The notes beneath the pieces were generated by a model. The model was not told the DNA's origin. It was given only the letters and a program-made list of their open reading frames with translations, and searched no databases. Of a stretch of DNA of 64,000 bases, positions 52,191-52,778 are shown piece by piece. This DNA comes from Escherichia coli (GTDB lineage Bacteria; Pseudomonadota; Gammaproteobacteria; Enterobacterales; Enterobacteriaceae): NCBI RefSeq assembly GCF_009931435.1, contig NZ_CP043414.1; one strand, given 5' to 3'. Position 1 is the stretch's first letter. Each line of letters begins with the position of its first letter. Both the position numbers and the translations under genes were made by a program.

Positions 52191-52343
52191 TTACAGTGCC
52201 CGATGCGTAAGCTTATAGGGTCTACGCATTGGTGCAATTTATTGAAATTTAGTGGTTTTTTAGGCAGGATAAAGCGTTTATGGACTGCCCCCCAAAACCT
52301 GGACAGTTTCAGTTAACCGGCTTTTTGATACTCAGTCCGGTAT

Positions 52344-52778
52344 TCAGGGCAAGATTACGAAAGCCCGCTCCCCGCAAGGACTGACGCGAGAAATGACATG
52401 AATCGCTCCCCTGCGGCGACTCTTGTCATAAGAGTGCCGGAGCGTTTTTCCATCAATTACAATGACGTCTTTATCATCTGAAGAATGGCAGTCACGCATC
52501 CAGTTAATAAAGCACTCGTGAAATTTTTCAGGACTGATACAGGATACAACTCTGGCAATGGTATCGTGAACAGGAATACCATTTTCAAAATCACCATATT
52601 GCTTCAAAAAATCGAGATGAGTTTCCCCAAAATCCTCTATATCTTCCCAATCTTCTGCACCAGAAATAACGGCACAAATAGTCAACAGTAGAATATCTGA
52701 CAATTTATGATCCACTTTCCAGGCTTGTCTGTAATCGGGGGTAATAGAAATATGTTCCATCAATTTTTTAAGTTCCAT
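52344..52778 (-). mobile_element. yhhI: Truncated H-repeat (ISAs1-family) transposase fragment, N-terminal 130-140 aa only
   Basis: [57 protein letters not shown]... matches the H-rpt protein N-terminus as I remember it, but the reading frame diverges and stops after about residue 130. Confidence 0.6.

Follow-up and report, generated by a model that had tools for sequence, protein, structure and literature searches.

What truncated the H-repeat (H-rpt) transposase gene that stands next to the Rhs accessory region in a 64,000-nucleotide stretch of Escherichia coli DNA (contig NZ_CP043414.1; the whole stretch is referred to as the window), and was Rhs DNA lost in the same event? H-rpts are long-known IS-like components of Rhs elements and are common in E. 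coli. In the window, the plus-strand genes yhiI-rbbA-yhhJ end at position 52190 and are followed by the minus-strand H-rpt gene, small Rhs accessory ORFs and an RHS core gene. The RHS core ORF (56149-60348, minus strand) belongs to a rhsB-type locus, and downstream of it lies an array of orphan accessory genes (53211-55339) containing two Imm-NTF2-2 immunity ORFs (53211-53609 and 55112-55339), a DUF6258 ORF (54159-54560) and a pentapeptide-repeat ORF (53563-53940). The pentapeptide-repeat ORF is a single open frame here and is annotated as split pseudogene pieces in strains 2020CK-00188 (locus L002) and CFSAN061763 (L005). The H-rpt was assigned to an rhsB-type accessory region from its position between nikR and yhhJ, on the downstream side of an RHS core gene and in the company of orphan toxin-tip and immunity genes; in related genomes the genes are ordered in the same way, and nikR is on the far side of the core gene.

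The yhhJ-side flank was compared with the corresponding loci of other strains, among them S43 (L001), which carries a single intact yhhI, and 2020CK-00188, which carries an intact yhhI together with the accessory genes of the window. The yhiI-rbbA-yhhJ segment (46100-52344) is uniformly ~4% diverged from L001, L003 and L004 and ~99% identical to 2020CK-00188; differences from the latter are concentrated at 47600-49700, a pattern resembling a recombination tract. To judge from its sequence, the window is from a divergent Escherichia lineage. The intergenic DNA between yhhJ and the H-rpt (52191-52344) contains a pair of degenerate REP/BIME-like palindromes at 52199-52290, just past the yhhJ stop codon, and is collinear with L001 to L005 whatever the state of the H-rpt. 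Six of the few differences between the window and 2020CK-00188 cluster at 52208-52230, inside this palindrome pair, and a 78% identical copy of the first ~80 bp of the intergenic DNA is located ~13.6 kb upstream (38571-38652).

The truncated transposase ORF occupies 52344-52778 on the minus strand and encodes 144 aa, corresponding to codons 1-129 of the 378 codons of YhhI plus 15 out-of-frame codons. The product generated a hit on DDE_Tnp_1_assoc in Pfam (E = 1.3e-33, aa 8-94) and on the NCBIfam model NF033564 for ISAs1 family transposases (134.9 bits against a cutoff of 70 bits), the latter covering only model positions 1-102 of 314. When the full 378-aa YhhI was used as a tblastn query, the match in the window was limited to aa 1-133. 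An earlier note on this DNA had described an ISAs1-type H-rpt transposase cut by a deletion after about 130 residues, and these domain, model and tblastn matches bear it out. Intact YhhI (378 aa) contains DDE_Tnp_1_assoc at aa 8-94 and the catalytic domain DDE_Tnp_1 at aa 102-343. As DDE_Tnp_1 spans aa 102-343 of the intact protein, catalysis should be gone from the window product, in which 28 residues of the catalytic domain (aa 102-129) are left and the Pfam scan generated no DDE_Tnp_1 match.

Nucleotide comparison with an intact element defined what had been lost. In blastn with the 1,291-bp element of strain S43 (L001 6246-7536), element positions 1-47 matched window 52345-52391 with 100% identity and positions 761-1291 matched window 52392-52922 with 95.5% identity. 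The flanking alignment runs through the same breakpoints, window 51900-52391 aligning to L001 5801-6292 and window 52392-52922 to L001 7006-7536. Alignment to a full-length H-rpt, the check proposed in the earlier note, thus placed the deletion endpoints at H-rpt positions 48 and 760 and the joint at 52391/52392 (...GACGCGAGA/AATGACATGAATC..., the slash marking the joint). The remnant (52345-52922, minus strand) is 578 bp long, that is, the 1,291-bp element minus the 713 bp of positions 48-760. Codons 130-366 of the 378-codon transposase gene are removed with these 713 bp, which is nearly the whole DDE catalytic domain. The junction reads GCGAGA/AATGACATG in the window, and intact copies read GCGAGA/TAGTTT at the left breakpoint and CGCACT/AATGAC at the right breakpoint; no microhomology was found at the joint relative to L001, with zero bases in common. 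Neither the deleted 713 bp nor a second H-rpt copy was found elsewhere in the window by blastn and tblastn.

Both ends of the element are retained. The 5′ part of 531 bp (H-rpt positions 761-1291, window 52392-52922, minus strand) comprises the 129 codons, a 126-bp leader and the right terminal repeat, so the element reaches 144 bp past the ATG, to 52922. The 3′-terminal 47 bp (52345-52391, minus strand) carry the left terminal repeat CAGGGCAAGATTACGAAA, the original stop codon and the last 12 codons, read in another frame, and are identical to the corresponding 47 bp of the intact elements in L001 and L004. Because 713 is not a multiple of three, these 47 bp are read out of frame: the 387 nt of 52392-52778 make exactly 129 codons before the frame changes, and the ORF stops after 15 further codons at a TGA that straddles the element terminus. 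The frame divergence and early stop described in the earlier note were thus confirmed, but its statement that the remainder of the gene is missing from the window was not, as the last 47 bp of the element are present and only the internal 713 bp are absent. Nor did the span given there (52191-52778) coincide with the element, since 52191-52344 is intergenic DNA that is unchanged in genomes with an intact element, and the element itself runs on to 52922. The deletion joint reported there is real, but it is internal, with both termini kept, and is not a boundary between the H-rpt and its neighbour.

The right terminal inverted repeat (...TTACGTGATCTTTCCCTG, 52905-52922) is complementary to the left repeat (52345-52362) at 15 of 18 positions, as seen when CAGGGCAAGATTACGAAA was compared by hand with the reverse complement CAGGGAAAGATCACGTAA. 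A repeat search of 52150-53000, which missed these imperfect terminal repeats, generated only short repeats at chance level. No target-site duplication was found around the element, the left flank (...CAGTCCGGTATT) and the right flank (ATTCAATTGCCA in the window, CCCTTTATTCAT in L005) sharing no direct repeat in either the window or L005; this would be expected if remodelling of the right flank had followed insertion. The sequence TGGACTGCCCCCCAAAACCTGGACAG... to the left of the ORF was considered as the end of a second, truncating IS of the IS3 family and was rejected, being the ordinary yhhJ-side flank found in all genomes in any H-rpt state. The Pfam and NCBIfam matches and the 95.5-100% DNA identity to yhhI elements identify the element as H-rpt, known as yhhI, at the yhhJ-proximal edge of an rhsB-type Rhs locus. 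Membership in ISEc1 of the ISAs1 family follows the transposase model match and the terminal inverted repeats at both ends, while a complete DDE domain, the full length of 1,291 bp and a target-site duplication, which would mark an autonomous element, are all absent. Judged by its sequence, the feature is very probably a defective, internally deleted H-rpt copy, an inert pseudogene without a transposase.

To determine how widespread the deleted allele is, the joint was counted in 5,426 complete E. coli genomes with a 181-bp probe and with a 56-bp probe covering the joint only. Both gave 275 genomes (~5%), in each of which the joint is present once, always on the chromosome and never on a plasmid; the 56-bp probe matched over its full length at one place in each of the 275. 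The deleted allele adjoins yhhJ at every locus examined, where RefSeq labels it as a pseudogene, "ISAs1 family transposase, incomplete; missing C-terminus". At the same site, 1,836 genomes have an undeleted sequence over the left breakpoint. The 1.1 kb around the ORF was matched as joined pieces, with at least 80% query coverage, in 1,773 complete E. coli genomes, and the top-listed of these matches span ~1.86-1.98 kb. Two draft genomes contain the exact 144-aa product: GCA_021109565.1, which matches 12.4 kb of the window at 99.98% identity, and GCA_036246705.1, which matches 10.0 kb at 99.96%. The deleted allele is thus already known, as a pseudogene flagged by annotation pipelines, and ordinary; in the literature on H-rpt, ISEc1 and yhhI, no paper describing this 713-bp deletion was found.

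The earlier note had also suggested that adjacent Rhs material may have been lost at the deletion joint. Window 46100-52393 is collinear with L002 1-6293, and window 52392-59200 with L002 7054-13862, at ~99% identity each. As 2020CK-00188 carries an intact H-rpt and yet aligns collinearly with the window to either side of it, the 713-bp deletion took no neighbouring or Rhs DNA. Loss of Rhs DNA did occur, but at the opposite terminus. Relative to the flank found in CFSAN061763, 2,344 bp (L005 3733-6076) are absent at 52922/52923, flush with the right terminus, and the window matches L005 again from 52925 onward (L005 from 6079). Beyond the deleted element in CFSAN061763 lie an IS630 fragment, a SEL1-like gene, an orphan RHS C-terminal tip and a full yibA of 281 aa. 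In the window, a yibA-like HEAT-repeat gene remains as a 5′ fragment of ~61 codons (52923-53121, minus strand) cut flush at the H-rpt right terminus, ~220 codons having been lost with the 2,344 bp, and the ORF at 52864-53121 (minus strand) consists of this N-terminal fragment reading on into the H-rpt. The flank of the CFSAN061763 type is present in at least 181 genomes and is the commonest flank of the deleted allele, and the right joint of the window type was found in one complete genome only, 2020CK-00188. On these comparisons, the loss of 2,344 bp of orphan Rhs-toxin/immunity DNA is a separate, lineage-specific event at the other terminus of the element.

The right terminus (...CCCTG) is abutted by four different sequences in different genomes. 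In S43, an intact H-rpt cuts the same yibA-like gene 163 bp further along. In strain 2012C-4502 (L004 7046-8961), the deleted H-rpt is followed by a 47-bp spacer, a full-length H-rpt in the same orientation and an rhsC-like cassette, an arrangement that suggests cassette exchange at this boundary.

The intact H-rpt of 2020CK-00188 stands beside a second, very short one. In this strain, the closest complete relative of the window, 49 bp of the H-rpt left end (L002 6245-6293, equivalent to window 52345-52393) form a stub joined directly to the exact end of the intact H-rpt, the junction reading GACGCGAGAAACAGGGAAAGATTACG. The stub ends with GCGAGAAA, and thus has the same left breakpoint (GCGAGA plus AA) as the deletion in the window. 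This form is unique to 2020CK-00188 among the 5,426 complete genomes; the 76-bp probe for the junction of stub and intact element was confounded, as its halves repeat each other, and only 2020CK-00188 gave a full match in a single piece. The intact copy of this strain is mosaic: at H-rpt positions 828-1208 its alleles are L001-like, and beginning at ~1209 it matches the window without a difference up to and beyond the terminus, including a G at 1253 that is specific to the window lineage. These SNP patterns favour recombination or insertion of an intact copy onto a resident deleted allele, in which case the deletion would be ancestral. Changes specific to 2020CK-00188 at 52208-52230, 52330 and 52359-60 would be compatible with an imported patch.

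We propose that one 713-bp internal deletion (positions 48-760) would have removed the catalytic domain and shifted the frame, and we infer that it arose once, by illegitimate (non-homologous) joining. The resulting allele of the locus would afterwards have been inherited or spread by recombination, and a second, independent event in the window lineage removed the 2,344 bp of Rhs-toxin/immunity material at the other terminus. The remnant differs from that of L003 at 12 positions in 578 bp (~2%), and the flanking genes are ~3-4% diverged. Since the flanking genes of the window lineage are ~3-4% distant from those of mainstream E. coli, and the joint is nevertheless the same, the deleted allele would be either old or moved by recombination.

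Several other accounts of the truncation were weighed against this proposal. That the gene is really full length, and its truncation an artefact of sequencing or assembly or a simple frameshift, has a negligible probability: the absent stretch is 713 bp rather than one or two bases, and the identical joint recurs in the 275 complete genomes and in two independent drafts, whose match to the window at >99.9% across 10-12 kb rules out an assembly or frameshift artefact. A full-length ORF, the recovery of which would have told against the earlier note, is likewise not to be had, given that the 713 bp are without a match in the window and that the joint is shared by those 275 genomes. A single deletion at the end of the ORF, taking out the remainder of the H-rpt and neighbouring Rhs DNA alike, in line with the suggestion of adjacent Rhs loss, would account for the departure of the ORF from YhhI after ~130 residues and for the absence of Rhs-associated DNA near the H-rpt of the window. 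It is nevertheless extremely improbable, because past the joint come the genuine 47-bp 3′ terminus of this element and then the usual flank on the yhhJ side, both sides are collinear with the intact-H-rpt relative 2020CK-00188, and the Rhs DNA that is absent belongs at the other terminus and is also lacking in 2020CK-00188, where the H-rpt is intact. A less remote, though still unlikely, alternative is that the deleted allele descends from a stub plus intact element as found in 2020CK-00188, formed when an H-rpt inserted into an H-rpt at about position 49, the pair then being collapsed by recombination. The collapse could have involved cleavage by the transposase at the left terminus of the intact copy, inward resection and rejoining at an AA microhomology, in which removal of 760 bp would give the joint of the window. 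The stub shares the left breakpoint and the two A residues with the window joint, a deletion anchored at an IS terminus requires no positional coincidence, and further terminus-flush joints are known at this locus. However, the stub form was found in one of the 5,426 genomes as opposed to 275 for the deleted allele, the mosaic pattern of 2020CK-00188 is the one expected if a resident deleted allele had received an intact copy by recombination, and an extra T>A change at stub position 48 would be required. A single illegitimate deletion within the element is retained as the preferred origin.

H-rpt transposition has been stated as not observed (PMC3032704). The H-rpt transposase may conceivably have acted here recently, in trans on the defective copy, a tentative suggestion made because the two terminus-exact joints (52922/52923, and that between stub and intact element in 2020CK-00188) could be footprints of adjacent deletion and self-targeted insertion.

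None of the five deleted alleles examined has lost the open 144-aa frame, and ~6 non-synonymous changes and 1 synonymous change were counted among them. I13T, E23D and G43D are private to the window, at positions that are invariant in every other copy, intact or deleted; H87Y is found in L003, and E2K and an R>Q change in the tail are found in L005 and L006. This ~6:1 pattern would fit decay. Promoter-like sites numbered 3 against 2.8 expected, terminator-like sites were also at chance level, and a search of 51000-54500 against Rfam generated no match at E <= 1. Truncated transposases of some other IS families repress transposition, and by analogy the N-terminal protein might be kept for a function such as binding of H-rpt ends and repression of transposition. 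An ORF open in five of five alleles with a complete DDE_Tnp_1_assoc domain would agree with this, and the lower divergence of the remnant than of its flanks could hint at constraint; the low divergence would also be accounted for if the 5-13 H-rpt copies of a genome undergo gene conversion or if the allele spread by recombination. With changes that are mostly non-synonymous, three of them at otherwise invariant positions, with promoter-like sites at chance level, and with 1,836 genomes keeping the undeleted form at the site, retention for such a function appears very unlikely. Still less probable is a MITE-like, non-autonomous nature of the 578-bp element, with intact H-rpt copies mobilising it in trans. 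Its two terminal repeats are intact, and the genomes that carry it also have intact H-rpt copies, with 5-13 H-rpt places per record, but the joint probe matched exactly one place per genome in 276 records, none of them on plasmids, and the site was the same yhhJ-adjacent one in every locus examined. Any present-day role of the decayed remnant is likely passive, as a patch of homology and an IS terminus where the Rhs accessory region is remodelled.

As the truncation is internal and took no Rhs DNA, it should not serve as a marker of Rhs loss. The joint GCGAGA/AATGACATG can conveniently serve as a single-copy marker of lineage at the yhhJ-rhsB boundary, and the terminus-flush joints point, in a small and circumstantial way, to a part of H-rpt elements or their ends in the remodelling of orphan toxin/immunity arrays of Rhs loci.

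Among known systems, the closest is H-rptB/yhhI (ISEc1) of the E. coli rhsB locus, which occupies the same site, with the left junction ...CCGGTATT/CAGGGCAAG adjoining yhhJ, has the same terminal repeats and is 95.5-100% identical in nucleotide sequence over the 578 bp of the window copy. The window copy differs from it in lacking positions 48-760 and in retaining 129 of 378 transposase residues and no DDE domain. The RefSeq-annotated pseudogenes (e.g. IGX36_RS01230 in K_EC180 and CA897_RS01335 in CFSAN061763) have the same joint at the same site, with 98-100% identity over 56-181 bp; unlike these, the window allele has three private amino-acid changes (T13, D23 and D43), and its right terminus is fused to yibA at codon ~61 instead of being followed by the usual CCCTTTATTCAT... 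Remnant H-repeats at recombination joints have been described in the Salmonella group D2 O-antigen cluster (PMC3715488). As in the Salmonella D2 case, the defective H-repeat of the window lies at the edge of a horizontally exchanged mosaic cluster; the Salmonella remnant, however, marks the joint of two donor clusters, whereas the joint in the window is internal to the element, whose flanks are collinear with those of genomes carrying an intact element.
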